DNA from: a virus
Lineage: Duplodnaviria; Caudoviricetes
Direction: 5' to 3' (one strand)
DNA length: 56,485 nucleotides
IMG/VR virus record: IMGVR_UViG_3300002988_000063
Coordinates: 1 to 56,485 of that record
Both the position numbers and the translations under genes were made by a program. Under the pieces are notes generated by a model, which was given only the letters and a program-made list of their open reading frames with translations, did no database searches and was not told where the DNA came from. The first letter of the stretch is position 1. Every line of letters starts with the position of its first letter. This document shows positions 16,056-42,777 of the stretch, piece by piece.

Positions 16056-16162
16056 GTCCTAACGCAAGCACAGATAAGAAAGCGTAAAGCCGTGTAAAAC
16101 CAGAAAAGAGAGCAATGATAACACTCGGTCACGGCTTTCATGCCTTCTATATTATTTATGAC
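16056..16162 (-). other. attC-like imperfect hairpin (degenerate)
   Basis: GTCCTAAC...TTTATGAC ends; inner stem AAAGCCGTG/CACGGCTTT with extension. Confidence 0.35.
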
Positions 16163-16511: not shown

Positions 16512-16551
16512 GTTTTTCTCCTCCCCCCTATAATTGGGGTATTAATCAGTT

Positions 16552-19594: not shown

Positions 19595-20320
19595 TTATTC
19601 AAAAGTTATGAGCGCCGACGCGCTGATCTCTGCGGTATCTGCGGTAGTGGCCGCCGTTATCTTAATGTCGGATTTTGGCGACACTGTAAGCGGATAGTCA
19701 AAGATCACCGTGGCCGTATTTGAATCTACGTTAAGCCTGTTGACGGCGGCAAATGCGCTGCCGTATTCCTTTATTTTAAGTTCAAATTTCACCGGGGCGC
19801 CGACGGCCGAGACGGTCCAGCTGTTGATCGCGCCGTATTTTTTCTCAGGGACTGTGTATAACGCGCTCTGGCTCTCAATGTTACCGGCCATTATTTTAGC
19901 ATAGATCGCCGTGCCTAATCCGGCCGTGATGTTTCCTATCGACGTTTCGCCGGTCCCGAATGTCAGCGCCCTTATCTTATTTATTCGCAAATACGAATTG
20001 ACGCTCACGGCCGCCGTGGTCCCGTTCATCGTAACGCCCTCGGAGATCTCGGCGTAATTCGCATCGAGGCCCTGTATCAAAAGCGTCCGGACGCCGATGC
20101 CAGCCGCCGTATCGCTCGTGCTGCTGCTTGATATCTCTATGGTAGCCGCAGCCGCGGGGAACGTGACGCCGACGGTATCCGCGACGGGCGCAACCACTGT
20201 TGTCTGAGACGGACTGTATCCGAGGATATGCGTGGCGCTATGCTTGAAAGTCTGTGCGCTCGCGGGCATAACCGTCAAGGCAATTAATAGGATCGTGATT
20301 AAAAAAATTCTCATGTTCAC
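19595..20320 (-). CDS. Beta-rich putative virion protein with Sec signal peptide
   Basis: MRIFLITILLIALTVMPASA|Q; Thr/Ala/Ser-rich body. Confidence 0.65.
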   Translation of the reverse strand: MNMRIFLITILLIALTVMPASAQTFKHSATHILGYSPSQTTVVAPVADTVGVTFPAAAATIEISSSSTSDTAAGIGVRTLLIQGLDANYAEISEGVTMNGTTAAVSVNSYLRINKIRALTFGTGETSIGNITAGLGTAIYAKIMAGNIESQSALYTVPEKKYGAINSWTVSAVGAPVKFELKIKEYGSAFAAVNRLNVDSNTATVIFDYPLTVSPKSDIKITAATTADTAEISASALITFE

Positions 20321-20328
20321 TCCTTTGC

Positions 20329-20577
20329 TTAAATATGAAATGCGACTTTAAAAATCAACAAAATGATGATATTGACTATAGTTATCGATGCAACGAGTTT
20401 CCCGAAAGATTTGTCACCGGCTGTTTCAACGGCCTTTTTTCCGTTGATATAAGTTTGGTGATCGTCGCACATTTTTTTCTTATCTTTCCATTCCTCGGTA
20501 AGCCAGCGAACGGCAAAATGGACCTCAGCAAGTTTAACTTCGTCGCTCACCTTCCCGTCTGAGAATTCAGGTGCCAT
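20329..20577 (-). CDS. Small protein with C-terminal TM helix (holin/XhlA-like)
   Basis: LVASITIVNIIILLIF; directly follows the glucosaminidase gene. Confidence 0.5.
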   Translation of the reverse strand: MAPEFSDGKVSDEVKLAEVHFAVRWLTEEWKDKKKMCDDHQTYINGKKAVETAGDKSFGKLVASITIVNIIILLIFKVAFHI

Positions 20578-20592
20578 AAAACTGCTCCTTTC

Positions 20593-21153
20593 TTATTTTA
20601 ATGAGGTCCAGATTTTATCCATGAGCGCCTTTATACCTTCGATCCAGTCCAGGCGGCTCACGCTGTCATGGAAGTCGCCGCAGTATGAATGGCCTTCGGG
20701 TTTCTGCGGATGATCGGCGATATCAACGAGGGTCCTCTGGCCGCAGTTAACATAGGAAAGCTTTATCATCTTGCAAAAAGCCTTGATGGAATCGTTTATC
20801 GTCGGATAAGGCGCGGGCGCTCCGTCCTCGCCTTTTGGCTGGATGCCGAAAGCGTTATTGTATTCTTTGAGAAAGCGGCTCTGGCCATGTCCGGTTTCGT
20901 GGATCGCGACGGCCAGGGCGAATATCGGACTGATGCCCCATGTCTGACATTCCGCGATAAATGCGTCGCCTTTGCTTTTTAAAACATTGGTATTCGGCTC
21001 AGACGCCAAATATAACTTGATCGCCGCGATATATTCCTCGCGTAAATGTGTCCAGTTAACGTCAACTTCGAACTCGTTTCTCCTGGCGTATAATTTCTTT
21101 GCGCGTATCGGGTCCCTGTCTTTCACCGCTCCCCATTTGCCTCTTGTTACCAT
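20593..21153 (-). CDS. Glucosaminidase-family (GH73-like) peptidoglycan hydrolase, probable endolysin
   Basis: GISPIFALAVAIHETG.G.S....NNAFGI. Confidence 0.8.
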   Translation of the reverse strand: MVTRGKWGAVKDRDPIRAKKLYARRNEFEVDVNWTHLREEYIAAIKLYLASEPNTNVLKSKGDAFIAECQTWGISPIFALAVAIHETGHGQSRFLKEYNNAFGIQPKGEDGAPAPYPTINDSIKAFCKMIKLSYVNCGQRTLVDIADHPQKPEGHSYCGDFHDSVSRLDWIEGIKALMDKIWTSLK

Positions 21154-21201
21154 GTGTTTTCCTCCTCAATCGTTTTGATCTTTTAAATTATTTGCCTCCC
21201 C

Positions 21202-24200
21202 TTATTTATTGAACTCTTTGAATTTCTTTAATATGTCCGCTCTTTCCTGCTTTGTTTTTGCGTATTTTAAAGCCTTCCTCAGATTCTCCTTTTCCATGTT
21301 TGATTTACCCGCTTTCTGTGCCTGGAACTCGCGGAGATTCCGCGATACAGTGCCGCCGTTTATTCTCAATCCTTCAGCCTTGGCACGGTCAATAAATTCT
21401 TTTTTGATCGCTGTTATATCTTCGCCGGTCTGCTTTGCCTCGAATATCCTTGACGCCAGTTCTCTTGAAAGCTCAACGCTCTGGGCGTCTTTTTGTTTAA
21501 GGTTCGAGTCTGCCTCCGGAGCTTCGGCGCCGGATCTGATAAACTTGCCGAACAAAGCTTTTACCGCTGTTTCAAGTGGAGTATTTCGCACGGCGTTCGG
21601 GCTGTTCGCGTCTACGTTCATTCTGTATATGCTGCCGAAAAGATAATTATTCCAAAGGTTCTTGGCCATAGCCTCGGCCTTTATTTTGCCGCCGGAATCC
21701 CACTGCGTCTGCGACATAATCGGTTTTCCTGTCATGGTATTTTGTGGCGGAGTTTCGCCAGGATAATCGACGGCCATTCCAACAACGCCCATCATAGGGT
21801 TAAGGCTTGGAAGCTCATTCATTATTCCCGCGAACATACGCGATGCCACATCAGGCTTTTGTGATACCGCCGATCGCATGACCTTTATAAAAGGCTTTAA
21901 CGACTGTGGCATTGGTATTGTAAAATATTCAATTTCGCCGTTATCCTTCGTAAACAGTGGAAATGCGATATAGTTTTCTTTATCCCATTTCTTCATCTTG
22001 GAATAATCTTTTTTTGTGTCCTTGCCGAATGCACCATTTTCAGCCAATGCGGTGGCGGCCGCCATGGCAAATGGAACCGCCGCGGCTGTCAAAAATCCAA
22101 GCTTATCTTTTTTGTAAAAATACCAATCGGCGCGATATCCTTCCTTCGCGGCATTCAGAAACATCAGTATATTATTCGCGACGATCTTACCAGTGCCGCC
22201 GCCACGAACTGCGAACGCCGGAGAGCCTAAGCGTCTTATCATATTGACCTTTTCCGCTTCGGAGTATTCCGGAAGTTTATCCAGGACACGTTTGGCCGCG
22301 ACCTTGTTTATGTTCTCAATGGCATGGCCAAAATCTTTTATTTCCTCGCCAACATGGCCGATTATTCCACCGCCACCGCGCGCGTCTTCAACGTAAGTCT
22401 GTATCAGACGCTCGGCAACTGGTATGCCAGCCTCACCGGCGTAACGGCTTTCTTTCGACGATAAGAGCGCGCCTTTCGCATTATTGGAAGCAATGTCTTT
22501 TTCGAACTGAGTATCATGCAGATCTTTGCCGAAAAGAGATTTCGAAATATCGTTCACAAATGGAGTATATGACGCGACCACCTGCGGAAGCAATTTCGCC
22601 TGTTCAACGCCGAGCCTTAATTTGTTTTTGAATCCGGGCATCTGGATAAGCGCCGTCATTATGTCGCGCGGCAAGTTTGACGTTAGCTGCCATATCGGGT
22701 TATATTCTATCCAGGCGGCGCGGAATATCTGCGTGCCTTGATTCCAGAAACGAAGCGCGGAGCCTAATTGTCCGTTCTGGCCAGACGCTTCACGGAACGC
22801 CCAGGTAACTTCTTTCGGAACATAATAACCCTGTGTCTCGCCGTTTTCGCGAAAGGTTATCAGCTCCAAATTAGAACCGGGTGCCGCGTCTTTATAAGTT
22901 TTGAAATTAATTGAAATTTTGTTTCCGGAAGCCGTGTCGTATTCTTTCACATATTGTTTATCAACTTCCGCCGGCTGAATGTCCGACTTAGCGAAACTGC
23001 GCATGGCGTCAACCGTCTGCATCTTCGCGTAATTTATTTTATTCGCCGCCAATAAAGAAAGATCCTTTTTCATCGTCATGGCTATCGGGTCATCGATGGC
23101 CTTTGAAGTTCCCTGCTGAACCTTTATCGAACCGGTCGGCCCGTACTCGATTGAGCCAGGTCCCGCGCCGTAATAATCGCCGACCATGAATGTCGTATAG
23201 TCAGGATTGTTAGCCGCGAAGTCTGCGAGGTCTCCGGCCTGTCCGCCTTTTCTCTCAAGCTCATCAATAACGAATTTCTTTCGGGTCTCGAACCAGTTCT
23301 GTAAAGACTTTTCAAGCACTGCCATTTTGTCCGGAGGAACGCTATCTAAAAATGATTGAGCCTCTTTTATTGTGAAAGGGTTTTTGATGTTCGAACGCTC
23401 GCCGACAATGCGCTTCATGGTCGCGGTATTGCGAAGATCGGCGTATGAAAGACCATCGATTTTAAGCGGGTCGATGACGTTTTTACTCACTTCGTTCATA
23501 TAGCCCTGCGCGTATGACGGCAGATAAAATATGTCCTCTAAATGTTTCTGTAAATGTTCAGACGCTTTTCCGACGAGCTTCCCGGCGCCTACGACCCTGT
23601 CATAGATCGGCGTGAATACATCTACGAACTCGCGGCGTATCATCGCACCTGTCGATTCTGCGCGGTTCTTTGATTCCTGTTTGATGGACTGCTCTTTTTT
23701 CCCAACAGTATCAAACATCGCGTTTGCTTTGGACGCGACAGCAGGATCTCCGACGGTCGATTGTCTGTCGAGTTCATAATCGTTCTTGCCGAATAATTTC
23801 TCATATGCGTTCTGGAGAGTTCCCGCGCCGAACGCTCCAATTTTTGGTGTTGGTTCTACGGCAACTGGTTTCGTTTTTATCTCCGGAGAAATAGCAGTTT
23901 CCCGACCCGTGGCGACGTTCTCCGGAGCGCTCCCGAGTGTTTGCTCGTTCTTGATTTCCGGAGGCGTTATAATCGCGTTCTGTGTGTTCGGGGTTTCGGC
24001 AGGCTGCTCGCTCGGTTTATATCCGAATTTTTGTAAAGATAAAGCGTCGTTCTTCGCTTTCAATGCGGCACGATCGACGCTTATGTCTTCACCGGCCATT
24101 TGTCTTTTAGCCAGGGCGTATGCTTCGGCTTTTATTTCCGGTGTCTGCGGTTCGACTCTGCCGCTGTCGTCCAGGACAAGCGCGGAAAGTTTTCCCGTCT

Positions 24201-25353
24201 GCGCGCTTTTTATCAATGGATTCGCAATAACTTTAGCGGTATGCGTTCCCATTAATCCGGACATAAGAAGATCTGTAACACCTTCTATCGGAGCTTCCAT
24301 AAATCGTTTTATCGTCTCGGGATTCTGCGATAACAGGCCCCATGTCGTTTTCAAGCCTTCCCATGGAATACCAAGATATATTTCTTTCGCGGTTTGCGGT
24401 AATTCGCTTTCTCCAATGACGGATTTGAATTTCTCCGTGAACTGGTCGAACGGAATAGCATCGGGATATTTCGCTTTGAATTCGTCAGGGCTTAATCTTT
24501 TACTGTCGTATAAAAACTTATTCGTCATGGCCTTTTCAACGGCCTCGGGGTATTTGGTATTAAATGTTTTCCCGTCCGCCGTTTTAACGGGGACCAGCGG
24601 GCGTGAGGCTGTCGGTCCGACGATCTGCTGTGTAACGTCTTCGTCCGTTATGTTTTTATTCTCCCATTCGTTTTTAACTTTGCTCTTAAAAAACGCGCTT
24701 AAAGCCGAAACTGTATCAGATATTTCATTTGCTGATTGGTTGAAGTTTTGCGCGGCTTCCGGACTTATCGCGCCGACTTCGCGAAGGCCGACGGCTGGTA
24801 TCTTTATTCCTTCGGTCCCAAGCCGCGTGAGGTATTCGGGAAGCATCGAAGCGACGTTTGCGAGAGCCGCCGGCGCATTATTGGCGGCAGTCTCGGCGAG
24901 CTTTAACGTCGGTGAATTATCGATGATCTTGTTGGCGTTCGCGGATGCGTTGTCGATAAGATTATTTGCGTCTGCCGAAATATCAACAGGCGTCGGAGCT
25001 ATTATTAAAGGCTGCGTTTGTGGAACTGCCGGGCCGTCCGTCGGCTGTGGAGACTGCGGCATATAGTTCGTCTGCGCGACTCCGCTCTCTCCGGAGAAGT
25101 CGTTAGACGGCGGAGCGGGTGCGCCTGGCAATAAGTTCGCCAAAAAATCAGGCACGGCGTTTGCAATGCTCTGCGACATTGTAAAATCCGGCTTTATGAC
25201 GGGCGCGGATTTATCTATGGTTTCCGCCGGCGCAGGTGGTTCTTCATCCCACGTTATATTTGGTTTCTTAACCTCGTCATCCCAAACGATGGTTGGAGCC
25301 GACTCTTTTGGAGTTTCGTCATCCCAAGTTATATTCGCCATTATTTCATCCAT
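21202..25353 (-). CDS. Large internal virion (ejection) protein
   Basis: 1383 aa; N-terminal ITWDDE-type repeats; position after the tail genes as in podoviruses. Confidence 0.7.
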   Translation of the reverse strand: MDEIMANITWDDETPKESAPTIVWDDEVKKPNITWDEEPPAPAETIDKSAPVIKPDFTMSQSIANAVPDFLANLLPGAPAPPSNDFSGESGVAQTNYMPQSPQPTDGPAVPQTQPLIIAPTPVDISADANNLIDNASANANKIIDNSPTLKLAETAANNAPAALANVASMLPEYLTRLGTEGIKIPAVGLREVGAISPEAAQNFNQSANEISDTVSALSAFFKSKVKNEWENKNITDEDVTQQIVGPTASRPLVPVKTADGKTFNTKYPEAVEKAMTNKFLYDSKRLSPDEFKAKYPDAIPFDQFTEKFKSVIGESELPQTAKEIYLGIPWEGLKTTWGLLSQNPETIKRFMEAPIEGVTDLLMSGLMGTHTAKVIANPLIKSAQTGKLSALVLDDSGRVEPQTPEIKAEAYALAKRQMAGEDISVDRAALKAKNDALSLQKFGYKPSEQPAETPNTQNAIITPPEIKNEQTLGSAPENVATGRETAISPEIKTKPVAVEPTPKIGAFGAGTLQNAYEKLFGKNDYELDRQSTVGDPAVASKANAMFDTVGKKEQSIKQESKNRAESTGAMIRREFVDVFTPIYDRVVGAGKLVGKASEHLQKHLEDIFYLPSYAQGYMNEVSKNVIDPLKIDGLSYADLRNTATMKRIVGERSNIKNPFTIKEAQSFLDSVPPDKMAVLEKSLQNWFETRKKFVIDELERKGGQAGDLADFAANNPDYTTFMVGDYYGAGPGSIEYGPTGSIKVQQGTSKAIDDPIAMTMKKDLSLLAANKINYAKMQTVDAMRSFAKSDIQPAEVDKQYVKEYDTASGNKISINFKTYKDAAPGSNLELITFRENGETQGYYVPKEVTWAFREASGQNGQLGSALRFWNQGTQIFRAAWIEYNPIWQLTSNLPRDIMTALIQMPGFKNKLRLGVEQAKLLPQVVASYTPFVNDISKSLFGKDLHDTQFEKDIASNNAKGALLSSKESRYAGEAGIPVAERLIQTYVEDARGGGGIIGHVGEEIKDFGHAIENINKVAAKRVLDKLPEYSEAEKVNMIRRLGSPAFAVRGGGTGKIVANNILMFLNAAKEGYRADWYFYKKDKLGFLTAAAVPFAMAAATALAENGAFGKDTKKDYSKMKKWDKENYIAFPLFTKDNGEIEYFTIPMPQSLKPFIKVMRSAVSQKPDVASRMFAGIMNELPSLNPMMGVVGMAVDYPGETPPQNTMTGKPIMSQTQWDSGGKIKAEAMAKNLWNNYLFGSIYRMNVDANSPNAVRNTPLETAVKALFGKFIRSGAEAPEADSNLKQKDAQSVELSRELASRIFEAKQTGEDITAIKKEFIDRAKAEGLRINGGTVSRNLREFQAQKAGKSNMEKENLRKALKYAKTKQERADILKKFKEFNK

Positions 25354-26603
25354 CCTTTGCGGCCGTTTGCATCAATAATTCTACGGCCTAATTTTGGATC
25401 GGTTTCACCAGTAAACGTTATTCCATTATTAGCCGGAGCCTGGGCAGGCGGTGGAGCCGGAATAGTAGCGGGCTGCGTTGGCTTGGGTGTTGCCGTCGGA
25501 GCTGTCGCATTCGAACCGCTTTCAACCAACTTTTCAGCGTTTGACGATCCAACTCTTTTTTCACGCTGTTCAATAAGATCGTGATTTGTGAGTTTCAAAT
25601 CGTTGATTTCCTTATCGATATTATCGATGGCTTCCTGATCTGCGAAGTCCTGCGTCGCTTTCAATTTCATATCTTTAAGTTTATCAATTCTATTGCGATT
25701 AACTTTAATGGTATCTTCATCGAACTTGGCCACGGCTTTCGGGTCGCCTATTTTCGCAAGCAGACCACGAACTACGAACTGCTTTTCGCCGACCTTTGCA
25801 TTCAAATTAGCGGCGAACTGATAAGCATTCGCGGTGTATGCGTCGTTATAGTTTTTATATTTGCCGGCGGCGACGTCTTCCTTGGCTTTAGTGTCGACCA
25901 GGGCGACGCTCGAATCATCATAAAGCTGGCTTGCGGAACTTCCGGCCGCGCTGTGTTTTCCTGAACGCCCGCCCATTCTCGCCATTATAGCCTGTTGACG
26001 CAGCTCGTCCATCTGTATTTTCCTGTCAAGATCCTGCTGCTTCATATCAAGTTCGGTCTCGCGGCGGTCGCGATCAAATATCGTCTGCGGATTCTGCTCA
26101 TTCGCGTTAATGTCGAACTCTTTCTGCCACTGATACATATCTTTCTGTTCGGCCAGTTTTTGCTGGGCGCTCTGGTCCTGTCCGGCGATCTCTTCGTTTT
26201 TAGCATTGAGATTATTAAGCGCCTGCAGGAAGTTTCCGAAGCCGGCCGCGATTCCGGAACCGCTATGAGCCGTCGCGTTTATTGGTTCATTCATTACTGC
26301 AGTCCTTAACGGCTGGCGCCCTGGAACCTGTGCGCCGAAATCCGTTTTTCTCAATTCAATCGGTGTCTGGACAGGCGCGGGAGCTGCAGCAGCCGAAGGC
26401 GCGAAACGCTTCATCAGTATATTTTTTATCATTGTCGCCTGGTCTGCCACGCTCGAAGGCGGAGCGCCGGAGACGTTCGGATTCGGTAATTGAAGATTCG
26501 GAACCTGCTGAGTATTATCCGCCGGCTGACCGCCAAACATAGATGAAAGGTCAAGATTAATTCCGGTACGCCTTAAAATGTCCTGTAAAAAATTATTGTC
26601 CAT
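25341..26603 (-). CDS. Internal virion (ejection) protein
   Basis: Q/A-rich helical protein, GIAAGFGNFLQA segment, synteny. Confidence 0.6.
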   Translation of the reverse strand: MDNNFLQDILRRTGINLDLSSMFGGQPADNTQQVPNLQLPNPNVSGAPPSSVADQATMIKNILMKRFAPSAAAAPAPVQTPIELRKTDFGAQVPGRQPLRTAVMNEPINATAHSGSGIAAGFGNFLQALNNLNAKNEEIAGQDQSAQQKLAEQKDMYQWQKEFDINANEQNPQTIFDRDRRETELDMKQQDLDRKIQMDELRQQAIMARMGGRSGKHSAAGSSASQLYDDSSVALVDTKAKEDVAAGKYKNYNDAYTANAYQFAANLNAKVGEKQFVVRGLLAKIGDPKAVAKFDEDTIKVNRNRIDKLKDMKLKATQDFADQEAIDNIDKEINDLKLTNHDLIEQREKRVGSSNAEKLVESGSNATAPTATPKPTQPATIPAPPPAQAPANNGITFTGETDPKLGRRIIDANGRKGWMK

Positions 26604-26620
26604 TCTCGTACTCCTTCCTC

Positions 26621-28549
26621 TTATGACGGTATGTTTTTAGACATTGAATAGTTTTTAGAATTGTTGTAAGTGCTGACCACGCTCGGCGTCGGCAGTGTGT
26701 AGGTCGGCACGGTATATGTCGAAGGCTGATAGGTCGTTGAAGCCGTTCCGGTCGAATTGCCTTTTGAATTGAAATAATTCAACGCGCCCGAAAGCGTACC
26801 GCTCACAAGGCTCTGCTTATCTTTAGCGGCGGCCGTCTCTGCTTTAAACGCATCGGAAAGCGCGTTCGCCTGTATCTGCTGAGGTCCGCTTTGCGACGAA
26901 TATAGCGAAAGAATATTATTGAAAATGTTCTGGAGCTGATTTCTCTGATCGGTCTCGTAGGCAGTTTTCAAATTCATATTCGTCAACTGGCGATCGGTGT
27001 TCGTCTTGGCCATATTGTTAAGCGCATCGAGGACGCTCATCTGTGCGGTCTGGCCAGCGACGCCTGCGCCTGCTATGTCGTTCGCAATGTTCGCCTGCGT
27101 CGTAGCGGTATTATTCGCAAGATTGGTGAGATTATTAAACGCCTGCGCGCTCTGATCCGTTCCCTGCTGCTGAAGCGTACCTGCCGCCGTGGTTGCCTGT
27201 AACTGCTGATTGGCGAGGCCTGTTTCATTATTCATTGCGTTCGTGATAATATCCGTTATAAGTGATTCGGCGTCGGCTGCGGATCTCGCGCCGATAACTC
27301 CTAAATTTCTGTCCAGGTCGCGGTTCAATCCGGCGTTCGTGCTATTCACTATGGTCTGCGAGTTGCCCATGCGCGTGGCGATATCGGCGGCATTCTTCGC
27401 CGTGGCTTCTTCGGTTCTTGCGATCAGAGGATCCGAAGCGGCTTTATATAAATTAGCGCGGTAGTCTGCGCCGTTATTTGAAACCGCGTCAGACATGCGT
27501 TTCATAACGACTTGACGCACTGCCTGCTGACCCGCCGACGGTCCGCCGGCTTCCTCGATCTTCTTGACGTAGGGATTATTCTTTAACTCAGTCGCGGTTT
27601 TCTCAAGCGCCGCCATATATTCTTTTTGCTTCGTCGGATCCGCCGCCTGCTTCAATATGGCCACGGCTTCGTCGATGGTCTTTATGGCGGGGTTCTCGTT
27701 CATCAGCTTCGTAAGCTGCTCTTTGACGAGCTTTTCTTCTTCCGGCGCCTTCACCTGCGGATAAGGCGTGGTCTGGACGCCTTCTTTATCAATGGTTTTT
27801 GAGTATTTGAAATTCGCGCCTTCGGGATAAGAAACTGTGCCCGTCTTTTCGTCGGGTTTAAACTGCGTCGTGAATTCCTTTTCAACGTCGTTTATGTCAT
27901 AGCCCTGCGATATAAGGTTCTGTTTCATGGCTTCCATTTTCTGCGACGTTTTCAACATATTATATGTCAGCGGGTCGGCCATGTAATTATCTTTCGCCCA
28001 CTGTAACATCTGCTGATTTTCAGGCGTGTAAAGGTTATCTTTTTCGAGGCGCATCTTAATATAATCCGCGCCGTTGTTTATAGGATTTTTCGCATCTTTG
28101 CCGATACCCTTATCGGCGTAGTCTTTCCAGTCGTTGCCGTATTTGCTTATGAGCTGGAAAAACTCTTTTGACTTCGGAGTGTCGGCGACGATCTTTAATG
28201 CCTGGTCAGCGTTCGGCAGTTTCGCGCCGGGTGTGTTCGCAGCGTTTGTAACGGCCAAACTATCATACGGGACGCCCTGATTATTATATTTCGCCTTGAC
28301 GTAATCCTCGGGCGTGTAGTTCGTGCGCTTGTCGATCTCGGTATTCGTATAATCGGTTATGGCCGATTTCATCTCGTCGTAATTCAGACCCATGGCTTTT
28401 GACAATGACAATAAAAGCGGGTCCATCTGTCTCTGTAGATCTGTTTTCATCTGCTCTGCGGTAGGCGCGCTCGGGGCGTCTCCGGACATAAACGATGATA
28501 AAAGTGGTCCAGCTATGGCTGATATAAGGCCTAAGTCCATAATATCCAC
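26621..28549 (-). CDS. Internal virion / DNA pilot-like protein
   Basis: N-terminal LGLISAIAGPLLSS; A/N/Q/T-rich C-terminal half. Confidence 0.6.
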   Translation of the reverse strand: MDIMDLGLISAIAGPLLSSFMSGDAPSAPTAEQMKTDLQRQMDPLLLSLSKAMGLNYDEMKSAITDYTNTEIDKRTNYTPEDYVKAKYNNQGVPYDSLAVTNAANTPGAKLPNADQALKIVADTPKSKEFFQLISKYGNDWKDYADKGIGKDAKNPINNGADYIKMRLEKDNLYTPENQQMLQWAKDNYMADPLTYNMLKTSQKMEAMKQNLISQGYDINDVEKEFTTQFKPDEKTGTVSYPEGANFKYSKTIDKEGVQTTPYPQVKAPEEEKLVKEQLTKLMNENPAIKTIDEAVAILKQAADPTKQKEYMAALEKTATELKNNPYVKKIEEAGGPSAGQQAVRQVVMKRMSDAVSNNGADYRANLYKAASDPLIARTEEATAKNAADIATRMGNSQTIVNSTNAGLNRDLDRNLGVIGARSAADAESLITDIITNAMNNETGLANQQLQATTAAGTLQQQGTDQSAQAFNNLTNLANNTATTQANIANDIAGAGVAGQTAQMSVLDALNNMAKTNTDRQLTNMNLKTAYETDQRNQLQNIFNNILSLYSSQSGPQQIQANALSDAFKAETAAAKDKQSLVSGTLSGALNYFNSKGNSTGTASTTYQPSTYTVPTYTLPTPSVVSTYNNSKNYSMSKNIPS

Positions 28550-28556
28550 TCCCTTA

Positions 28557-29099
28557 TTAATAACGTTTTTCTATAATCTTTTTGTGTATTAAAATCTCGC
28601 CGGTGAGGTTCACGGGCGTCGGCTCCGTGAGGCTTATCGTTATCGTATTCGCTGATGCCGTTACGTTTTTTATGAGCACCGGGAAAGTTACGCCCTGGCT
28701 AAAACTTTGCGACGGTACAGAAACCGTTTGAGCGGGAACAGTTATTGTCACGCTTTCGGTGCCTACCGTGAAAGTTATATTCTGCGCGGGAACCGTAATA
28801 TTTTGCGCCGGCGTCACAATAGAGATATTGCGAGATACTACGGCGATCGATGCCGGTTCTTTAATGGCGGCCGCCGCGTTATCCGTCGCTAAAACTCCAG
28901 GCACATTAAGCGCGATCGAACTCTGGCCAGCCGTCATTGTAAAGACTTCCGATGTGCAAAGTAATAATTGCATTTCCTCGAAATTGCGCTTGATATTCCG
29001 CATGTTGACATCGAGCGGCCCCGGGAATATCGGCTGCATGGCGCATGCCGTTTCACAAGATATAAGTAATATGAAAATGATTGAAAATATTTTCTTCAT
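28557..29099 (-). CDS. Putative tail protein with signal peptide
   Basis: MKKIFSIIFILLISCETACA|M; TVPAQ-type repeats; coupled to the nozzle gene. Confidence 0.6.
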   Translation of the reverse strand: MKKIFSIIFILLISCETACAMQPIFPGPLDVNMRNIKRNFEEMQLLLCTSEVFTMTAGQSSIALNVPGVLATDNAAAAIKEPASIAVVSRNISIVTPAQNITVPAQNITFTVGTESVTITVPAQTVSVPSQSFSQGVTFPVLIKNVTASANTITISLTEPTPVNLTGEILIHKKIIEKRY

Positions 29100-30613: not shown

Positions 30614-30614
30614 A

Positions 30615-31325
30615 TTATTTCACCGCCGGCGGAGTCTGGATCATCGGCGGCGTGATAACATTGCTGCCGTCCATGAACATATTTTTTGTGGTTATATGGT
30701 CCATCATCAGCGCCTTGAATCCGGCAGCTCTGTCCGTCTGCCCGTCCTGTTGTAAAACCGTATAGCAGGTCGCCCAGATAACGAAGTCATCGTGTGCCGT
30801 GGCAGTCGAAAGTATCGCGCCGTCGGTATCAAGCGAATCGGGCTTTCTCAAGTAATGAAGATATACGTCCTGCGTGTCAGAGGTCGGCATCGGGAATACC
30901 TGAATCTTATCGCCCATGATACAGAACATAGGATCGCGTAATGTTGCCTGTAATGTGCGCGCGTAATACTCGGTAGGCCGTACTTGTATCGCTGGCTTTC
31001 CCGCATACTTACACGCGACGAGTTTATAGAAATTCGTCGGCAGCGTGTAATACGCCTCGGTCGTTGACACGGCTATCTCGGCCGTCGTGAGGAGATTATA
31101 ATTGACGGACGGCGTAAGCATATCGAGCATAAGACCTTCGGCTACACGCACGGCGCGGTTGATCTGTTTATTCGTGTAGATCGTGTTAACCTCGTCCGTT
31201 TCGAAAAGAGCCTCGCGGACATCGTAGCGGATCTCGGCCAGTGTCGTCGCGTTCGCCGGTATGTTTACAAAGAGGATGACGCATATTGATAATGCCGCTA
31301 AAATATGTTTACTAAAAAGTTTCAT
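30615..31325 (-). CDS. Head-tail adaptor / tubular protein A-like with signal peptide
   Basis: ...IPANA|TTLAEIR..VR...YTLPTNF...IQVFPMP...Y...P. Confidence 0.75.
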   Translation of the reverse strand: MKLFSKHILAALSICVILFVNIPANATTLAEIRYDVREALFETDEVNTIYTNKQINRAVRVAEGLMLDMLTPSVNYNLLTTAEIAVSTTEAYYTLPTNFYKLVACKYAGKPAIQVRPTEYYARTLQATLRDPMFCIMGDKIQVFPMPTSDTQDVYLHYLRKPDSLDTDGAILSTATAHDDFVIWATCYTVLQQDGQTDRAAGFKALMMDHITTKNMFMDGSNVITPPMIQTPPAVK

Positions 31326-31337
31326 TTAATCCTCCGG

Positions 31338-31520
31338 TTAAAATCTTCTCGTATATTTGAATCCGACGTAAACGTCATCGTTGCCGGATCTATAAAACTT
31401 GCCGATTTTAAATTCATAATTATCATTTTTATAAACGCTGATGTTTGGCGTGATTATGAGATTTCCGCGACCGTTCATTGTCTTTTGTTCTGCGACGATC
31501 GCGGAAACCTCATCTATGAC
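31338..31520 (-). CDS. -1 frame extension of the holin-like gene
   Basis: No convincing RBS of its own; in the -1 frame at A_AAA_AAG; ends YVGFKYTRRF. Confidence 0.65.
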   Translation of the reverse strand, partial: VIDEVSAIVAEQKTMNGRGNLIITPNISVYKNDNYEFKIGKFYRSGNDDVYVGFKYTRRF

Positions 31521-31526
31521 TTTTTT
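31456..31526 (-). promoter_or_regulatory. Programmed -1 ribosomal frameshift signal
   Basis: A AAA AAG (31526..31520), 6-nt spacer, 19-bp stem (31513..31495 with 31474..31456), 20-nt loop. Confidence 0.8.
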
Positions 31527-31921
31527 TTGATTTCTGCCAGTATATATTCTTTCTGCGTCTCGAACCACTTATCGAGCGAGCCTACGACGAGCGTATAAAT
31601 AAATTTTCCGATAAGCCCGATCTGCTCGAAGAATATTCTTTTAGCGTGGTCCGCGACTTCCGTCTGTTCTTCCTTTGTAAGTTTACCGTCGGCCTTTTTC
31701 GCTTTCAGATCTTCGACCACGGTTGACTGAACGACGGTGACCGCGACGATCACCTTCTGGATGAGCGCCTTGATTACTGCGTTATTTATTTTAGCCAGGA
31801 TAAAACCGAGTACGCCTACGACCGCCGCGAAAAAGAATATTGCGATCTGGTCGGCATAGTTATTGATAATGAATTCAAGAAGATTCCCGAGGACTGAATA
31901 GAATTTCTCCATAAATACCAT
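31514..31921 (-). CDS. Holin-like membrane protein (resembles the LL-H family)
   Basis: TM segment IAIFFFAAVVGVLGFILA; AV..VQ.T.V..LK....DGKLT.EE; likely start 31912. Confidence 0.65.
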   Translation of the reverse strand: MVFMEKFYSVLGNLLEFIINNYADQIAIFFFAAVVGVLGFILAKINNAVIKALIQKVIVAVTVVQSTVVEDLKAKKADGKLTKEEQTEVADHAKRIFFEQIGLIGKFIYTLVVGSLDKWFETQKEYILAEIKKKS

Positions 31922-31934
31922 CCTTTTATTTTAT

Positions 31935-32014
31935 TGGTCGCTTCCGGCGGGGCTTGAACCCGCGTATTAGTTTCGGGTTGAAACTTTGCTTTGTCCGTGT
32001 TAAGCTACGGAAGC
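31935..32014 (-). ncRNA. tRNA-like RNA with a non-canonical anticodon arm
   Basis: GCTTCCG/CGGAAGC acceptor, GCTT/AAGC D stem, GCGGG-TTCAAGC-CCCGC T arm; anticodon region AGTTT-CAACCCG-AAACT lacks U33. Confidence 0.75.
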
Positions 32015-32125
32015 AGGGATTATTTTATTCTAATATTGTGATATAACTTGTTTTAATTGGTCTGGTTGTTTTTCCGGAGTAGAATATGGCCTGTTTAAAG
32101 GGTATAACATTTTTTTAGAATATCA

Positions 32126-32662
32126 CTAAAACTCTAATGTTTCGCGCAATTCCTGATAGTGAAATCCTTTCGCATACCAGAAATCAAGACAGGTACTTTC
32201 TTTATCAGCGTATGTTGTTTCAAAATTCGACTGCATCAGAAGCGTTTCATCGGTGTTCGTCATTATCAAGATGTGATGATACTGCCCTTTGAGGACGTCG
32301 CCTCTCAGATAATAATGTTTCACCTTTGAAACAATTCTGGTATTTTGGCTTTTCTTATAGCGCAAAAAATCCATATAATATCGCGCTATTCCGGTGCAAT
32401 TTCCCCAGCCTCGCGTCATCGTTTCCGTCGGGGTCGGCGCGCGGTCGAGTAGAAGAACGTCGTCGATCTCATTCGCGTAGGTATAGCCCTTTTTCACAAG
32501 ATTGTCATTCAACAATGCTACGTCATTGAAGCCGTCCCAGTATGCGTGAAGTTCGGCCTCTGTCCATGTGTGTCCGGTGCTCTGCCATTCCGTCGTTGTG
32601 AAGCAGCCGAGCAGAAAGGCGAACGATGAGAGCATTGCGGTTATGAGGATTAGTTTTTTCAT
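32126..32662 (-). CDS. Lipoprotein with transglutaminase-like Cys/His motifs
   Basis: MKKLILITAMLSSFAFLLG|C; GNCTGIA...HHILI. Confidence 0.6.
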   Translation of the reverse strand: MKKLILITAMLSSFAFLLGCFTTTEWQSTGHTWTEAELHAYWDGFNDVALLNDNLVKKGYTYANEIDDVLLLDRAPTPTETMTRGWGNCTGIARYYMDFLRYKKSQNTRIVSKVKHYYLRGDVLKGQYHHILIMTNTDETLLMQSNFETTYADKESTCLDFWYAKGFHYQELRETLEF

Positions 32663-32666
32663 ATCA

Positions 32667-33353
32667 TCACAACCCATTAACTTTGCTCGGAACGCTTACT
32701 CCTAAAACCTTTGCCGCCGATGTTACACCGTTGACTTTTTTGGAATAGCCGGTTGTGTAAGTTACGGAAAGTTTCGGAGGGTATGTTTGACTTTGCCCGT
32801 AAATATCGTAATGAACTCCGGTATAAGCGGAAGGTGCATCACCGGATATACCTATTCTAAAACCAGTATATCCCGTTTTGGATATGCTCGAAAGATTGGA
32901 TAGGGATATTGTTTCGTCTGGGTATAAATTCCCTGAAGAAATTGAAAACGCCGTTGTTCCAACAGACGCAGAATAATCAGAATTCGATATTGAAGTAAAC
33001 GAATAGTATTCGCCGTCTGCGGTTCTCCCACCGGTATTCATTGCGCTCGCGGTGTAAACTTGTAAATATAAAGTAGCCGATGTTATCGTCGCGTTATCTG
33101 GCAAGGAGGACGTGTCAAATCTCAATAATATACTATTTACGATATAGTCGGAACCATCGTTTTGTTTATAAAGTCGGAGATAACCAGAAGTATAACACGC
33201 TTGGTTTGACGTGTCAGGAGGATATGTAGAGCTATATCGAGTGCAATATCCATCATCTTCATCCGCCGGGGAATAAAAATCAACCGTTGTTTGCGCAAAA
33301 GCACTTGAGCCAAAAAACAATGTTAAAAGTATCGCCATTATTATCTTTTTCAT
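32667..33353 (-). CDS. DNRLRE/CBM-like protein with signal peptide, candidate receptor-binding protein
   Basis: MKKIIMAILLTLFFGSSAFA|Q; LLRFDTSSLP.NATITSATLYL; PKLSVTY. Confidence 0.7.
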   Translation of the reverse strand: MKKIIMAILLTLFFGSSAFAQTTVDFYSPADEDDGYCTRYSSTYPPDTSNQACYTSGYLRLYKQNDGSDYIVNSILLRFDTSSLPDNATITSATLYLQVYTASAMNTGGRTADGEYYSFTSISNSDYSASVGTTAFSISSGNLYPDETISLSNLSSISKTGYTGFRIGISGDAPSAYTGVHYDIYGQSQTYPPKLSVTYTTGYSKKVNGVTSAAKVLGVSVPSKVNGL

Positions 33354-33354
33354 G

Positions 33355-35871
33355 TTATATCTCCACATATGTTCCGTCAAAATAGAAGTACACTGTATCC
33401 GCGCTTAAAGCCGTTCCGATTATCTGAACCTGCTGACCTGTCGAACTTGGAGCCGTAGCCGTAATCGCTCCCGCCGTTGCTGCCGAAACATATATTTTCT
33501 GGCCTTTCGTAAACGACCAGCCGCTATTCCTAACAATGCCTCTTATCAATACCTTGCGGTTCCCTGTGCCCGTTTCAACGCAAAGACCCTTTGCGGGTAT
33601 CGTCGTTGCCGAATCGGCCTTTGCAATCGTCCAACCACCGGAAGCAAGGTATAAGCATTGTCCTACCGTGGCGCTCGCCGCCATGCCGTCAACTATAACT
33701 TCGCCCGTATAATCGTTATACGCCATATTGAGCGGATACCATGTTTTGGCTTGCGTTTCGGAAGTAGCCGCCGCTATCGCCGAATCAACCGCCGCTTTTG
33801 AATATACCGCGTCGTCTATCGTTTCAAGCGCCTGCTGAACTGTCGTATCTGCCGATGATAATATGCCGTTGAAATTCGTCGTTGCCGCGCTTACAAGGGC
33901 TGCTATATTCGTCGCGCCGCTGCCTGTGGTCGTGCCTTTAAGCGTGCTTTTCTGGACCTGCACTTCTTCGATATATCCGCTTGATACGTTATTCTGGACG
34001 ATGATATATCCGAGTTGCGCAAGTTCTAACGCCGCTAATTCATTCGTGGCCGCTGCGACGCCTGTGGTTATAGCCGTCTGCGCCTGTCCTAAATTCGTAT
34101 ATTGCGCCGTCTGCATGACCGCGTAATACTGCGGCGTCGAGCCGTTAAGCGTGTCTTTGCCGACATAGAGCCTGAATACTCCGCGCTTTAAACTATCAAT
34201 AGCCGTAGCCGTTCCAGCGGCGTTATAATACATAGGCACGGTCGCCTGACTTGCATATCTTATCCACTTGCCAGCCGCGTTTGTATAGTAGTAATTTATC
34301 GTGATCGCCGCTGCCGAACTGTCCGGTATCGTTACCGTCAGGCCATGATCTTCGAGAAGGTCCGCGCCGGTTAATTTCACCGATCTATCGTTAGCGCTGC
34401 CGCCTGTGCCGGTTCCGAGTTTGCCTATGTTCGCACCGCCGTCGGAGTTTCTTATAAGCGGTCCGAAGTTATTGTGCATATACAAACTTGAAGCCGTGTC
34501 CATTGCGTAAGGATGATTTTCACGAGCGACCTGATAGATTGTGCCGTCGTATAAAACTTCGGCTATGTTTATTTTAGTCCCGTCGAATGTAGAAGTTATC
34601 CCGATCAAGCCATTCGCGCCCACATAAACATATTGCGTAGTATTCGCTGTAAGCACTTCTGACGTCTGTGGCGCGTTGAAACGTATGTGCTTACCATTGA
34701 TGAACCCATAGCCGCCAATGTCGAGTCTGAACGCGCCGCCGGTGATCGTGTAATATGTTCCGGCGCTATCCCAAATATCGAAGCCGGTTCGCGCTGCTTT
34801 ATTTATCGAAACAGCTATTGAACCGAGCTGACCTTCAACCGTTGTGGCGTCGCTGACCTCATTCGTTCCGCTGACATTCAAATCGTTCCAGCCGCGCGTT
34901 CCGCTGCCGTTCGTGCCGTAATATTTATAATTTCCCGGCGCCGCCGAATCGTTTACAAATTCAACGATATGGCTCGTCAAATTAGCCGCTAAAGAGTTCC
35001 CGACCTTATCACCGAGGTAGCCCGTCGTTGGATCTGCCGCGTCGGTTTTAACCTGTTCGTCAGGGCTGATACCAGGCGCGCCGAAAACTACGCCCGTGCC
35101 GAGCGCATTGACTTTCAGAACTTTGTTCTCCTGGCCGACGTAAGTATTCGGACAATCCGACAATTCGGTGAATGCCGCGCTTGCGAGCTGACTTAATCCG
35201 CCGGATTTAAAAACGACTTCGCTTGAATTTGCTTTCAAAAGAATAGCAGCTTCCGCGCTGGTCATAGATAACTGCGTCGCCTTCAATGCTAATTTCGCGT
35301 CCACTTCGGCGGTGTCATAAAAATCCGCGTCAATCTCTAATTTTGTGTAATACGCTGCGAGCGCGGAGCTTTCAGCTTTCGCGGATAAAGCGGATTCGAG
35401 CTGCAGGTGTGAAAGCGTTCCGATGCTCACAAGTCCGTTATGATCTATCGCTATATTCGCGCTGCCGTCGAAGGCTGTCCCCGCTATCGTTCTCGCAAAT
35501 TGTAACTGCGTCGCGGTTCCGGCGTTTCCGGTGATCGCCCCGTCCATTGTGCCAGCTTTGAAATTTCCGCTGGAATCGCGGCTGATAATTTTGCTCACGA
35601 CATTTTCGGAAGTCTGGCCGTGCGCCGTAGTTTCATTGATAATATGCGTATCAAAATCGGTGGTACTTGCGATATTCCCGCTCAAAGGAAGTCGCGCCTC
35701 GATGCTGCCCATGTCATATTCGACGCTTCTTGCGTTCGTCCTGTATATGTCTTTCGCCTCGTGCATTACGCCGGTCACAAGGTCATGGATTTTATAGCTT
35801 ATCGCGTCGGCATACGTCGCGGCGAAAAAAACCAAAAACAAAAGGCACCCGATTATAAAAAATCTCTTCAC
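33355..35871 (-). CDS. Tail fibre protein with signal peptide
   Basis: MKRFFIIGCLLFLVFFAATYADA|I; GNAGTATQLQFARTIAGTAFDGSANI and FTELSDCP..Y.GQ fibre motifs. Confidence 0.8.
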   Translation of the reverse strand: MKRFFIIGCLLFLVFFAATYADAISYKIHDLVTGVMHEAKDIYRTNARSVEYDMGSIEARLPLSGNIASTTDFDTHIINETTAHGQTSENVVSKIISRDSSGNFKAGTMDGAITGNAGTATQLQFARTIAGTAFDGSANIAIDHNGLVSIGTLSHLQLESALSAKAESSALAAYYTKLEIDADFYDTAEVDAKLALKATQLSMTSAEAAILLKANSSEVVFKSGGLSQLASAAFTELSDCPNTYVGQENKVLKVNALGTGVVFGAPGISPDEQVKTDAADPTTGYLGDKVGNSLAANLTSHIVEFVNDSAAPGNYKYYGTNGSGTRGWNDLNVSGTNEVSDATTVEGQLGSIAVSINKAARTGFDIWDSAGTYYTITGGAFRLDIGGYGFINGKHIRFNAPQTSEVLTANTTQYVYVGANGLIGITSTFDGTKINIAEVLYDGTIYQVARENHPYAMDTASSLYMHNNFGPLIRNSDGGANIGKLGTGTGGSANDRSVKLTGADLLEDHGLTVTIPDSSAAAITINYYYTNAAGKWIRYASQATVPMYYNAAGTATAIDSLKRGVFRLYVGKDTLNGSTPQYYAVMQTAQYTNLGQAQTAITTGVAAATNELAALELAQLGYIIVQNNVSSGYIEEVQVQKSTLKGTTTGSGATNIAALVSAATTNFNGILSSADTTVQQALETIDDAVYSKAAVDSAIAAATSETQAKTWYPLNMAYNDYTGEVIVDGMAASATVGQCLYLASGGWTIAKADSATTIPAKGLCVETGTGNRKVLIRGIVRNSGWSFTKGQKIYVSAATAGAITATAPSSTGQQVQIIGTALSADTVYFYFDGTYVEI

Positions 35872-35883
35872 TTCTCGTCCTCC

Positions 35884-36435
35884 TTAACTCGTAGCCATAG
35901 CGAGTCTGTATCTTGCCTCGTATGTCAGTTTGCCGCCGCTCGCGTTCTTGATCGTCAGACGCAGCGTGTTCGATCCTGTGGCCATTGAAAGATTGATCTC
36001 GATGTCTGTTACGCGCGAAGGGTCCGAGGCGTATTCCGAAACAATGCCTATGATCTTCGGTTCGAACGTCGCCGTCTTATAATTTACGACCTTACAATTC
36101 ACGATCGCTTCGGCCACATACGGCGTATTGCAATAAACATATATCCAGAAATCTGCCGCCTGTCCCGCCGCTACAGTTATGTCTTTTATGAAAGTGTCGC
36201 TGGTTACGTCCTCGGCCGCGACCCGCGTACTGTCCGCTATGACGGAACCGCCCAGCCAGAGCAGCGAGTTCTTCGTAGCCTTCAAAACAATATTGCCTTC
36301 TGCATCATAGAAGGTCACGCCATCCGTATCGACGCGGTACATCTTCGCGTCGGTATCATCATTTATGTGTTCTTCGTAATCCTTGACGCGGATCACATTT
36401 ATAAAATTCTCCTGGTCTAATGAATTTGGATTCAT
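35884..36435 (-). CDS. Hypothetical virion protein (no signal peptide)
   Basis: Position in the late operon; coupled to 36432..37118. Confidence 0.55.
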   Translation of the reverse strand: MNPNSLDQENFINVIRVKDYEEHINDDTDAKMYRVDTDGVTFYDAEGNIVLKATKNSLLWLGGSVIADSTRVAAEDVTSDTFIKDITVAAGQAADFWIYVYCNTPYVAEAIVNCKVVNYKTATFEPKIIGIVSEYASDPSRVTDIEINLSMATGSNTLRLTIKNASGGKLTYEARYRLAMATS

Positions 36436-37118
36436 CTTCTTACGCCTCCCGTCCTGGTATTTTTAACGAATCTGCTGCCGTTTCCGGTAAACGCAAATTT
36501 CAAGCGGCAAGCTTCAACGTTTTCTTTGTAACGATTCTCGGCGTCATCCGCCGCTTTGAACGCCGCGTCAGTTCCGAAAACGCCGCGTAATATTTTGCTT
36601 ACCGCCAGATCACAAAGACCTGAAGAATAAGGATCCGGTATATAAAATTCTTCGCTGTCAGCCGTGAGTTTGGGAGGAAGATAAAACCCGAATATCTGGA
36701 TAAGTTCGCCGTCGTATTTCGGCGCGGGATAAAGCTTGATCTTGCCTTTGGTCGTGTGATCGTCATAGCCCAGAGGAGAAAATTTACTGCTGACCTTCTG
36801 CCATGCTGGAAGGTAACGGCGCTCAACTTTTTCGAGATCACGCGAGCGATAGCCCCGCGAGTATTTTACATACTCAACTTCAAACAAGCCGGTCGGCTTA
36901 TCATAAAGGGACTGTTTTTTAACGGTCGGAATAAGATAAGGGCGTTTCGCGCCGCGATAGATTTTTGTATATGCGACGCCTTTCTCCTGGGCGAGATTTA
37001 ATTCGGAAATAATTAAGGCGTCCAGGACGGATAAGTTTTTCCCGTCTGTCATTTTATTCACTGAAGCAAAGGCCTGAAGGCGTTCACGGACGTATTCAAC
37101 CGCACCAGACAATATCAT
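36432..37118 (-). CDS. Head-tail adaptor-like protein (no signal peptide)
   Basis: VRERL...LN.AQ...Y..P...IKLYPAP...P.L.....IP..Y. Confidence 0.7.
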   Translation of the reverse strand: MILSGAVEYVRERLQAFASVNKMTDGKNLSVLDALIISELNLAQEKGVAYTKIYRGAKRPYLIPTVKKQSLYDKPTGLFEVEYVKYSRGYRSRDLEKVERRYLPAWQKVSSKFSPLGYDDHTTKGKIKLYPAPKYDGELIQIFGFYLPPKLTADSEEFYIPDPYSSGLCDLAVSKILRGVFGTDAAFKAADDAENRYKENVEACRLKFAFTGNGSRFVKNTRTGGVRR

Positions 37119-37136
37119 TTTATCTTCCTCCGGTTA

Positions 37137-37694
37137 TCAATATTTAATGACGTTAACTTTGGGCGGCCTGACTGCCATATTGTAAAAGGTCGTGGTTAAT
37201 CCCGACGCCGCGAAACTTGTGGTCCCGAGCGTAAACGGAACCGTCGCGCAGACTACCTTCGCGTATCCCATAAATATATTGTCTGCAGGTATCACGACAT
37301 TCGTTACGTCCGTATCGCCGACGGCGCCCACGGTCACTTCGGTCGTCGAGTTCACAACATCATAGGAAAAGACATACAGTTTTGTTTCCGTAGTGTTCTG
37401 AACGTCCGCCGTGAGTATTACGTCATCGGTTCCGGTAGCCGCCGTTATAGAATAAAAAACGCCGTCCTTTATTGCCTGGACGGTATTCGTTATTTTTATG
37501 TGCGCCGGATCGCCGGTTGCCGCGCCTATGCCCGGAGTAGCGAGAATGCGAGTCACCGCAGCTTCGCGAAGATCATACTGAAGGCTCACGAGATCCGCCG
37601 TTCCGTATCCGTTCGGAGTGATGTCCGCCGCATACAGCGGGAGCGAGAAAAGAACGATGAAAAGGATTGCGAGTATCAAAAGTTTTTTTATCAT
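37137..37694 (-). CDS. Putative virion/decoration protein with signal peptide
   Basis: GGAGG RBS; MIKKLLILAILFIVLFSLPLYA|A. Confidence 0.65.
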   Translation of the reverse strand: MIKKLLILAILFIVLFSLPLYAADITPNGYGTADLVSLQYDLREAAVTRILATPGIGAATGDPAHIKITNTVQAIKDGVFYSITAATGTDDVILTADVQNTTETKLYVFSYDVVNSTTEVTVGAVGDTDVTNVVIPADNIFMGYAKVVCATVPFTLGTTSFAASGLTTTFYNMAVRPPKVNVIKY

Positions 37695-38229: not shown

Positions 38230-38269
38230 TGTGATTCACTATCCTTTCAATTTATTTTTTATTCGCCGA

Positions 38270-39292: not shown

Positions 39293-39299
39293 AACTTAT

Positions 39300-40478: not shown

Positions 40479-40528
40479 AGACTACTCCTTTTGCGGCACG
40501 GGGTCCGTGGTGTTCCGCGTTTATTTCA

Positions 40529-42772: not shown

Positions 42773-42777
42773 AATTT

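Follow-up and report, generated by a model that had tools for sequence, protein, structure and literature searches.

Podoviruses of the Bcep22-like (Lessievirus), KPP25 (Kochitakasuvirus) and Ralstonia GP4 types order their genes as portal, scaffold, capsid, small head protein and adaptor. The same order is found in the late operon described here, which belongs to a tailed virus (Caudoviricetes) recorded in IMG/VR as IMGVR_UViG_3300002988_000063; the whole stretch of 56,485 nucleotides that was analysed is referred to as the window. By sequence, head and adaptor are distant relatives of the Bcep22, KPP25 and SU10 kind, with portal and capsid about 23-24% identical to their counterparts in Bcep22, KPP25 and Ralstonia GP4-type podoviruses. 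To our knowledge, the tailed phages studied so far are all taken to build the whole virion in the cytoplasm. Eight late proteins of the window begin with predicted Sec signal peptides; they form a coherent group of presumed partners, all distal to a first adaptor, and the signal-less group comprises everything needed in the cytoplasm for DNA packaging or packed into the head. Extracytoplasmic assembly would be the most economical and the most likely explanation of this division, and we give roughly even chances to the specific proposal that this is a temperate, short-tailed phage whose whole distal tail is made as Sec precursors and joins DNA-filled cytoplasmic heads late.

Predicted signal peptides on eight late proteins

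The late operon occupies the minus strand from about 45236 down to 19595, where it ends beside a tyrosine integrase gene (18345-19448, plus strand; PF00589 is recorded for the protein and its homologues). Eight of its products, all encoded on the minus strand, open with a basic n-region and a hydrophobic core followed by a small-residue cleavage site or a lipobox. In a typical Sec signal cut by signal peptidase I, the core spans about 7-15 residues and small neutral residues stand at -3 and -1, all inside roughly the first 35 residues. We scored N termini with a rule-based caller that, at its loose setting, looks for an uncharged run of 10 or more residues that begins no later than residue 15, together with a Kyte-Doolittle mean of 2.2 or more over the best 8-residue stretch and either a -3/-1 site or a lipobox; the strict setting adds two conditions, an n-region charge of +1 or more and a mean of 2.8 or more. 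Both settings flagged the identical set, 8 of the 22 late genes of the window, both lipobox candidates included. The controls gave 2 of 23 annotated late genes in Bcep22, 2 of 21 in KPP25 and 1 of 14 in the signal-less relative L006 at the loose setting, these calls being weakly hydrophobic fibre N termini and small lysis-cassette proteins, and none at the strict setting (0/23, 0/21 and 0/14, or 0/58 combined). No signal was called in the window on the terminase, portal, scaffold, capsid, first adaptor and its appendage, the three large putative ejection proteins or the endolysin. A preliminary description of this DNA had named the same eight proteins as signal-bearing and the terminase, portal, scaffold, capsid and ejection proteins as lacking signals, and on both counts the survey agrees with it.

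The start codons are in most cases well placed. A clear Shine-Dalgarno sequence precedes five of the eight, at 37694 (GGAGGA), 35871 (AAGGAGGA), 33353 (GGAG), 31325 (GGAGGA) and 20314 (AAGGAG); the starts at 30613 and 29099 abut or overlap the upstream stop, and that at 32662 has a weak ribosome site. Only two in-frame downstream starts would drop the hydrophobic segment and spare the conserved mature sequence, M23 in the nozzle-like protein and M21 in 28557, and the orthologues conserve neither.

Among orthologues the leaders diverge and the mature N termini align, with the motifs ADITPNG, G.(D/S)D..LQ, QPI.P and (I/V)H(D/N).(T/V)TG(V/I)MH. That the leaders behave as genuine export signals, keeping their character and not their sequence, is well supported by these comparisons. 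For the nozzle-like protein and the fibre, the orthologues place cleavage at LLA/G and ADA/I (the slash marks the predicted site here and below), so that the signals of the preliminary description stand and the cleavage sites it had proposed for these two are revised.

Two adaptors, of which the distal one carries a leader

The operon encodes two SU10-type adaptors. Adaptor 1, the proximal one (36432-37118, minus strand), has no signal and matches Pfam PF24175 over residues 18-197 with 47 bits against a cut-off of 27. Adaptor 2, the distal one (30615-31325, minus strand), scores 48.3 bits against the same cut-off and carries a signal with predicted cleavage after residue 26 (ANA/TT). Its family match covers residues 27-208 against profile positions 1-175, and homology to the adaptor family therefore begins at the first residue past the predicted site. 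The family profile also matches 12-chain virion entries of the PDB (8jov_2, E 1.1e-4; 9k09_d, E 2.7e-3). The two adaptors of the window are unlike each other by BLASTP (E 0.15). Gene 30615 had been described simply as the adaptor, a family assignment that holds; it is, however, the second of two paralogues, of which the first is signal-less.

Adaptor 1 is followed by a 183-residue appendage without a signal (35884-36435, minus strand), homologous (E 3e-5) to residues 231-402 of a 517-residue adaptor-1 fusion in the related contig L003, which ties the appendage to the cytoplasmic side. In this part of L003 (4688-6241 and 6238-7467) the fusion joins adaptor 1 to the 35884-like domain and to a C-terminal domain that resembles, by eye, the C terminus of the signal-bearing fibre-like protein of the same contig.

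A phmmer search with adaptor 2 against 1.84 billion representatives returned 42 matches (41 non-self), of which 33 were retrieved and 30 aligned (alignment A2). P0023, P0024, P0025, P0027, P0029, P0030, P0033 and P0042 were not retrieved and were left out (fragments, long multi-domain proteins and, in P0042, a weak partial match), as were four retrieved sequences, namely the 170-residue fragment P0021 and P0039, both with a leader, and P0036 and P0040, both without. Among the 22 long forms in the alignment, 21 were called signal-bearing, and the remaining one (P0013) has a leader too, preceded by an upstream extension. Ala stands at -1 in 19 of the 21, and the best cleavage site lies at the start of homology in 13 and within two residues of it in 19. 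All eight short forms begin 0-4 residues from the cleavage column. The leaders themselves have no common sequence, only a common character. A tree built from the mature parts puts 20 of the 22 signal forms in one clade (support 95/94), which leaves room for a single origin of the signal-bearing adaptors. That homology should start at the predicted cleavage sites had been proposed as a check, and it does so here as well as in the nozzle-like protein, by its Atlas matches, and in protein 19595 (see below).

The C-terminal residue of adaptor 2 (window 30615-30620) is Lys in 20 of the 22 signal-bearing adaptors of the alignment and Asn in the other two; Lys occurs in one of the eight leaderless forms. 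A C-terminal Lys left free on an exported protein brings to mind Braun's lipoprotein with its wall-linked Lys, and it could equally be an embracing-loop contact.

Other signal-bearing proteins

From the head module onwards the gene order is 37137, adaptor 1, its appendage, the fibre, 32667, 32126, a tRNA, a holin-like gene (31514), adaptor 2, the nozzle-like gene 29096 and the 180-residue 28557, followed by three large proteins, a glucosaminidase endolysin, an 82-residue tail-anchored protein and the 239-residue 19595. The genes taken up in this section are all on the minus strand.

Directly downstream of adaptor 2 lies the nozzle-like gene (29096-30613), whose 505-residue product has the predicted cleavage LLA/GQSD and is called nozzle-like from its gene order and from leads in the ESM Atlas. 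In the window, L003 and L011 alike, a protein of about 500 residues directly follows the adaptor and is in turn followed by the ejection proteins. Its orthologues P0002, L003 and L011 keep the leader and align from the mature Gly onwards, those of L003 and L011 having short classical signals of 18-19 residues. The Atlas structural matches begin at residues 27-30, and the neighbours are viral proteins of 470-512 residues, in one cluster of which 17% of the members carry PF11134. A Kelch motif was found by Pfam in one of four nozzle-like orthologues (E 7e-4), and a PHROG scan of the four gave one weak match (phrog_7629, E 0.085). A homologue search with the nozzle-like protein found a single relative besides the window's own, and neither it nor adaptor 2 has a tblastn match among 50,697 GenBank phage records (INPHARED). 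Residues 1-73 (window 30395-30613), leader included, are almost identical to those of P0002, whereas the whole proteins are 57% identical; this could mark a mosaic boundary or a strong N-terminal constraint.

The 180-residue neighbour 28557 (28557-29099) carries a signal, as had been described with its end at ETACA, and may be a lipoprotein instead of a substrate of signal peptidase I: Ser14-Cys15 are invariant in three orthologues (LISC, WLSC, ALSC), two of which are off the lipobox consensus at -3, and signal peptidase I sites lie downstream. The two candidate sites are LLIS/C and ACA/MQPIFP, and the mature QPI.P motif is conserved.

The tail fibre (33355-35871, 838 residues, cleavage ADA/ISYKIH) matches PHROG phrog_1833 over residues 45-152 and has repeats common to hundreds of tail-fibre proteins. 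It starts with GTG behind a strong Shine-Dalgarno sequence, and its leader is kept in P0046, in the fibre-like gene of L003 and in the fibre of G001. The 185-residue protein 37137 (37137-37694, cleavage LYA/ADITPNG) falls in the ESM Atlas among small viral beta-domain proteins; its orthologues in L003, G001 and L005 keep the leader, and the mature start ADITPNG is common to the window, L003 and G001.

At the distal end of the operon, the 239-residue protein 19595 (19595-20314, cleavage ASA/QT) matches PHROG phrog_8198 (4.5e-19). Alignments by tblastn with phage records start within residues 21-26, and two of the cyanophage genes so matched carry a virion-protein annotation; the homologue P0165 is leaderless and the G001 orthologue (E 2e-20) has a leader. 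Protein 32126 (32126-32662) is a predicted lipoprotein (LLG/C) with a WGNC...H motif, homologous (E 5e-11) to a G001 lipoprotein (VIA/C) that also lies upstream of adaptor 2; in both the consensus [LVI][ASTVI][GAS]C closes the hydrophobic core. The WGNC and later His that it has in common with the homologue at G001/L011 1094-1627 look like a Cys-His peptidase or transglutaminase-like site, and the family has no Pfam match. The eighth protein, 32667 (32667-33353, 228 residues), is flagged by the caller with cleavage AFA/QT; it has no orthologue in the relatives and no PHROG or Pfam family, and is unlike the extra signal protein of G001.

The same division in related genomes

Two relatives read through the tail region carry leaders on the corresponding proteins. 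L003 is a syntenic 39.5-kb IMG/VR contig (CheckV 45% complete) whose adaptor 2 and capsid are 37% and 45% identical to those of the window; 5 of its 18 late open reading frames have leaders, and these are the orthologues of 37137, the fibre, adaptor 2, the nozzle-like protein and 28557. G001 (43,194 bases, CheckV 100% complete, with the fibre gene running across the contig ends) has leaders on 7 of 20. Five of these proteins are the counterparts of the L003 set, and the other two are the orthologues of 19595 and of the lipoprotein 32126. Signals are missing from its terminase, portal, scaffold and capsid, from the adaptor-1 fusion and the three large proteins, and from the single-domain amidase endolysin. 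No second set of tail genes was seen on either strand of G001, the other strand holding small early genes only, so the sole tail genes of a complete genome carry signals. The head/tail division that the preliminary description proposed to look for in related phages recurs in both.

The contig L005 ends just within its signal-bearing orthologue of 37137. L006-L008, with capsids 34-38% identical, have no strict-rule leader in their readable parts, and L006 alone reaches tail genes beyond the capsid region. No relative came up when genome collections were scanned with the nozzle-like protein and with the adaptor alignment. Metagenome scans added nothing to the L003 contig, and scans of viral sequences for the nozzle-like protein, the portal, P0010 and P0004 were empty.

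Head side, lysis genes and flanking regions

The head module (37792-45236, minus strand) comprises a small-terminase candidate, large terminase, portal, scaffold, major capsid protein and a 145-residue head protein, all without signals. PHROG matches identify the terminase (phrog_2), portal (phrog_156, 3.5e-79) and major head protein (phrog_334), and the capsid protein belongs to Pfam Phage_capsid_3. Ahead of its PHROG match the portal carries about 130 additional N-terminal residues (residues 1-130, window 42380-42772) with two H-x-H motifs flanking a DG(T/S)G turn, which recur in the portals of L005, L006, L007, L008 and G001.

The three large proteins (21202-28549, minus strand; 642, 420 and 1383 residues) are taken as putative ejection proteins from where they lie and how large they are, by comparison with other podoviruses; the caller flags none of them, and none has a PHROG or Pfam family match. 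One of them, 26621, has a hydrophobic N terminus that is acidic and not signal-like. The endolysin (20593-21153, minus strand) is a single glucosaminidase domain without a signal (PF01832, 48 bits against a cut-off of 30.2; PHROG endolysin families). The holin-like membrane protein (31514-31921, minus strand) matches PHROG phrog_13712 'holin' (2.5e-6) and has hydrophobic segments and no signal; it is not alike to the small membrane protein of L003.

ARAGORN calls an 81-base tRNA-Gly within the late operon (31935-32015), which may be a false call given its unusual length and its anticodon, ACC, and a tRNA-Gln at 48239-48311. Beyond the late range, a ninth signal-bearing protein, an ankyrin-repeat protein with a classical signal (45774-46625, cleavage ARA/EY), lies in the interval from the small-terminase candidate (44490-45236) to a helix-turn-helix protein (47225-47671). 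The low-GC flank (1-17256, 35-41%) encodes at least five small TPR-like paralogues, paired with proteins of about 225 residues, together with a papain-like lipoprotein, an ankyrin protein, a RecB-like nuclease and a TIR-like protein, and looks like a defence or accessory island. An NCBIfam scan of ten flanking genes gave no pointer to the host, and a screen of sequencing runs listed two holders with small shares and none for RNA.

Discussion

From the signals, their conservation and their boundaries against signal-less homologues we infer export, cleavage and a place in the virion, as well as the time and place at which the two halves join. The following sequence of events would account for the division. 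Heads would be filled in the cytoplasm, where an adaptor-1 ring binds the portal. The exported set, in which one or two members have predicted lipoprotein signals, would comprise the adaptor-2 ring, the nozzle-like hub with its small neighbour, the fibre and a further two or three small accessory proteins; these would leave the cytoplasm unfolded and be processed and held in the periplasm. The halves would meet no earlier than the opening of the inner membrane by the holin and the digestion of the wall by the signal-less endolysin, or else in the lysate, and by analogy with SU10 the C-terminal loop of adaptor 2 would dock on the adaptor-1 ring to form the head-tail joint. Since the endolysins of this group are single-domain proteins without signals, the holin would have to open the inner membrane and in doing so would bring heads and exported tail parts together; a holin of the large-lesion type would fit such endolysins. 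The preliminary description had already suggested extracytoplasmic assembly, and that reading is partly supported: signals, boundaries and recurrence in relatives favour it, but it had named a single adaptor, and only the distal of the two carries a signal. It had also proposed exported decoration proteins, and we find no evidence that any signal-bearing protein decorates the head.

Several observations weigh against this proposal. Complexes of several hundred kilodaltons would have to form within or beside the peptidoglycan mesh, and the two membranes of the host are only presumed, from the short leaders and single-domain lysins. The nozzle-like protein, for whose earlier designation as the nozzle gene order and Atlas leads are the only grounds, has no Pfam, PHROG or PDB sequence match, and its hhalign comparisons with P22 gp10, T7 gp12, Bcep22 gp67 and KPP25 gp09 were not significant (below 1% probability for P22 gp10 and T7 gp12). 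Its leader in the window is 26 uncharged residues long and could be a membrane anchor instead. The mature exported parts contain 1, 3, 2, 3, 3, 5, 1 and 0 cysteines, mostly odd numbers that form no pattern of periplasmic disulfides, and the idea of such disulfides was dropped. Finally, the literature excerpts covered by our search report neither signal peptides on a podovirus tail module nor a head-tail division of signals.

A variant that we regard as possible, though more doubtful, places the entire tail in the periplasm as a free-standing organelle. The Ser-Cys protein 28557 would be a lipoprotein tethering the tail tip to a membrane, the Cys-His lipoprotein of the 32126 family would remodel the wall or process subunits, and the adaptor-2 ring would face inwards to receive DNA-filled heads, capped by adaptor 1, through the holin lesion. 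If true, virion assembly would be divided between two compartments, and this would be the first tailed phage with a tail that is never folded in the cytoplasm.

It is rather unlikely that the leaders stay uncleaved and are kept in the virion as membrane-inserting helices that act at infection, for example in an envelope channel, with assembly proceeding in the cytoplasm as in other podoviruses. There is something to be said for it: Bcep22 gp70 is annotated 'virion structural protein, contains potential signal peptide', and the nozzle-like leader of the window is both long and part of the N-terminal stretch, noted above, that is almost identical to P0002. Against it stand the complete n-, h- and c-region layout, with Ala at -1 in nearly all adaptor homologues and no conservation of the leader sequence, the short classical signals of the L003 and L011 nozzle-like proteins, and signal-less homologues that begin at the cleavage column. 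The ejection protein 26621, moreover, shows a different kind of hydrophobic N terminus. A basic n-region with a strong hydrophobic core would also engage Sec or the signal recognition particle in the producing cell.

The proteins might instead be exported and yet be no part of the virion, forming a separate periplasmic or surface set for phage exclusion, lysis or a change of the cell surface, which we likewise hold to be improbable. Exported proteins do occur in phage late operons, the Rz1 lipoprotein being one (PMC9144972); in the window, 32667 is without an orthologue in relatives and 19595 adjoins the prophage attachment end. However, in the complete genome G001 the single fibre, the nozzle-like gene and the second adaptor all bear signals, and no tail could be built without them. 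Adaptor 2 scores above the Pfam threshold of a virion adaptor family, Bcep22 has two signal-less adaptor paralogues annotated as structural, and the signal-bearing proteins are a coherent group of presumed interaction partners. Miscalled starts, or chance hydrophobic N termini in AT-rich leaders, are a very improbable source of the signals despite the methionines at or near the mature starts of the nozzle-like protein (M23) and 28557 (M21), given the ribosome sites and coupled starts described above, the absence of those methionines from orthologues, the recurrence of leaders across three divergent genomes and 21 of the 22 long adaptor homologues, and the empty strict-rule controls; the same evidence speaks against the downstream starts that the preliminary description had named as a refuting outcome.

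A lineage that routes all distal tail parts through Sec would break the rule of cytoplasmic assembly. If the late joining of an exported distal tail to cytoplasmic heads is correct, podovirus tails can be assembled apart from heads, and completion of the virion would be tied to the lysis clock. It would also provide a natural system of periplasmic tail-fibre folding, useful for engineering receptor-binding proteins that need it.

A precedent for a stack of two adaptor rings is found in Bcep22, whose gp58 and gp59 are tandem SU10_adaptor paralogues, annotated as structural and leaderless. The Bcep22 genes stand side by side, whereas adaptor 2 of the window lies beside the nozzle-like gene and has a leader, and neither Bcep22 nor KPP25 has a strict signal among its late proteins. 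In SU10 (Kuravirus), which has a dodecameric adaptor, gp11, and a hexameric nozzle, gp17, a C-terminal embracing loop of the adaptor grips the ring above, the nozzle is borne by the adaptor's helix bundle, and the fibres attach through their N termini (PMC9509320). Both adaptors of the window pass the threshold of the Pfam family named after this phage; the excerpted SU10 account, however, describes one adaptor and mentions no signal peptide (PMC9509320), compared with two adaptors, one of them signal-bearing, in the window.

A further comparison is with phage late proteins that are exported for other purposes. Lambda Lom and Bor and the signal-anchor-release (SAR) endolysins are examples. The T4 antiholin RI is likewise a Sec-exported late protein (PMC8385771). 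Together with Sec endolysins and Rz1, these are late products with a signal or lipobox that are held in the envelope until lysis, as the window set would be. They serve lysis or conversion, however, whereas the signals of the window sit on homologues of core tail proteins.

Virion subunits pass through host export machinery before assembly in the filamentous phages (Inoviridae) and in membrane-containing phages (PMC4823517). The Inoviridae have no terminase or portal and are extruded without lysis; the window encodes a terminase, a portal, a Phage_capsid_3 capsid protein, a holin-like protein and an endolysin, so DNA would be packaged into cytoplasmic heads and release would most likely be by lysis and not by extrusion. 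Export-dependent assembly of the inovirus type does not fit this gene set. In lambda and T4, heads and tails are completed apart and then joined, with both halves cytoplasmic, and in the archaeal two-tailed virus ATV, which is unrelated, the tails grow extracellularly after release.

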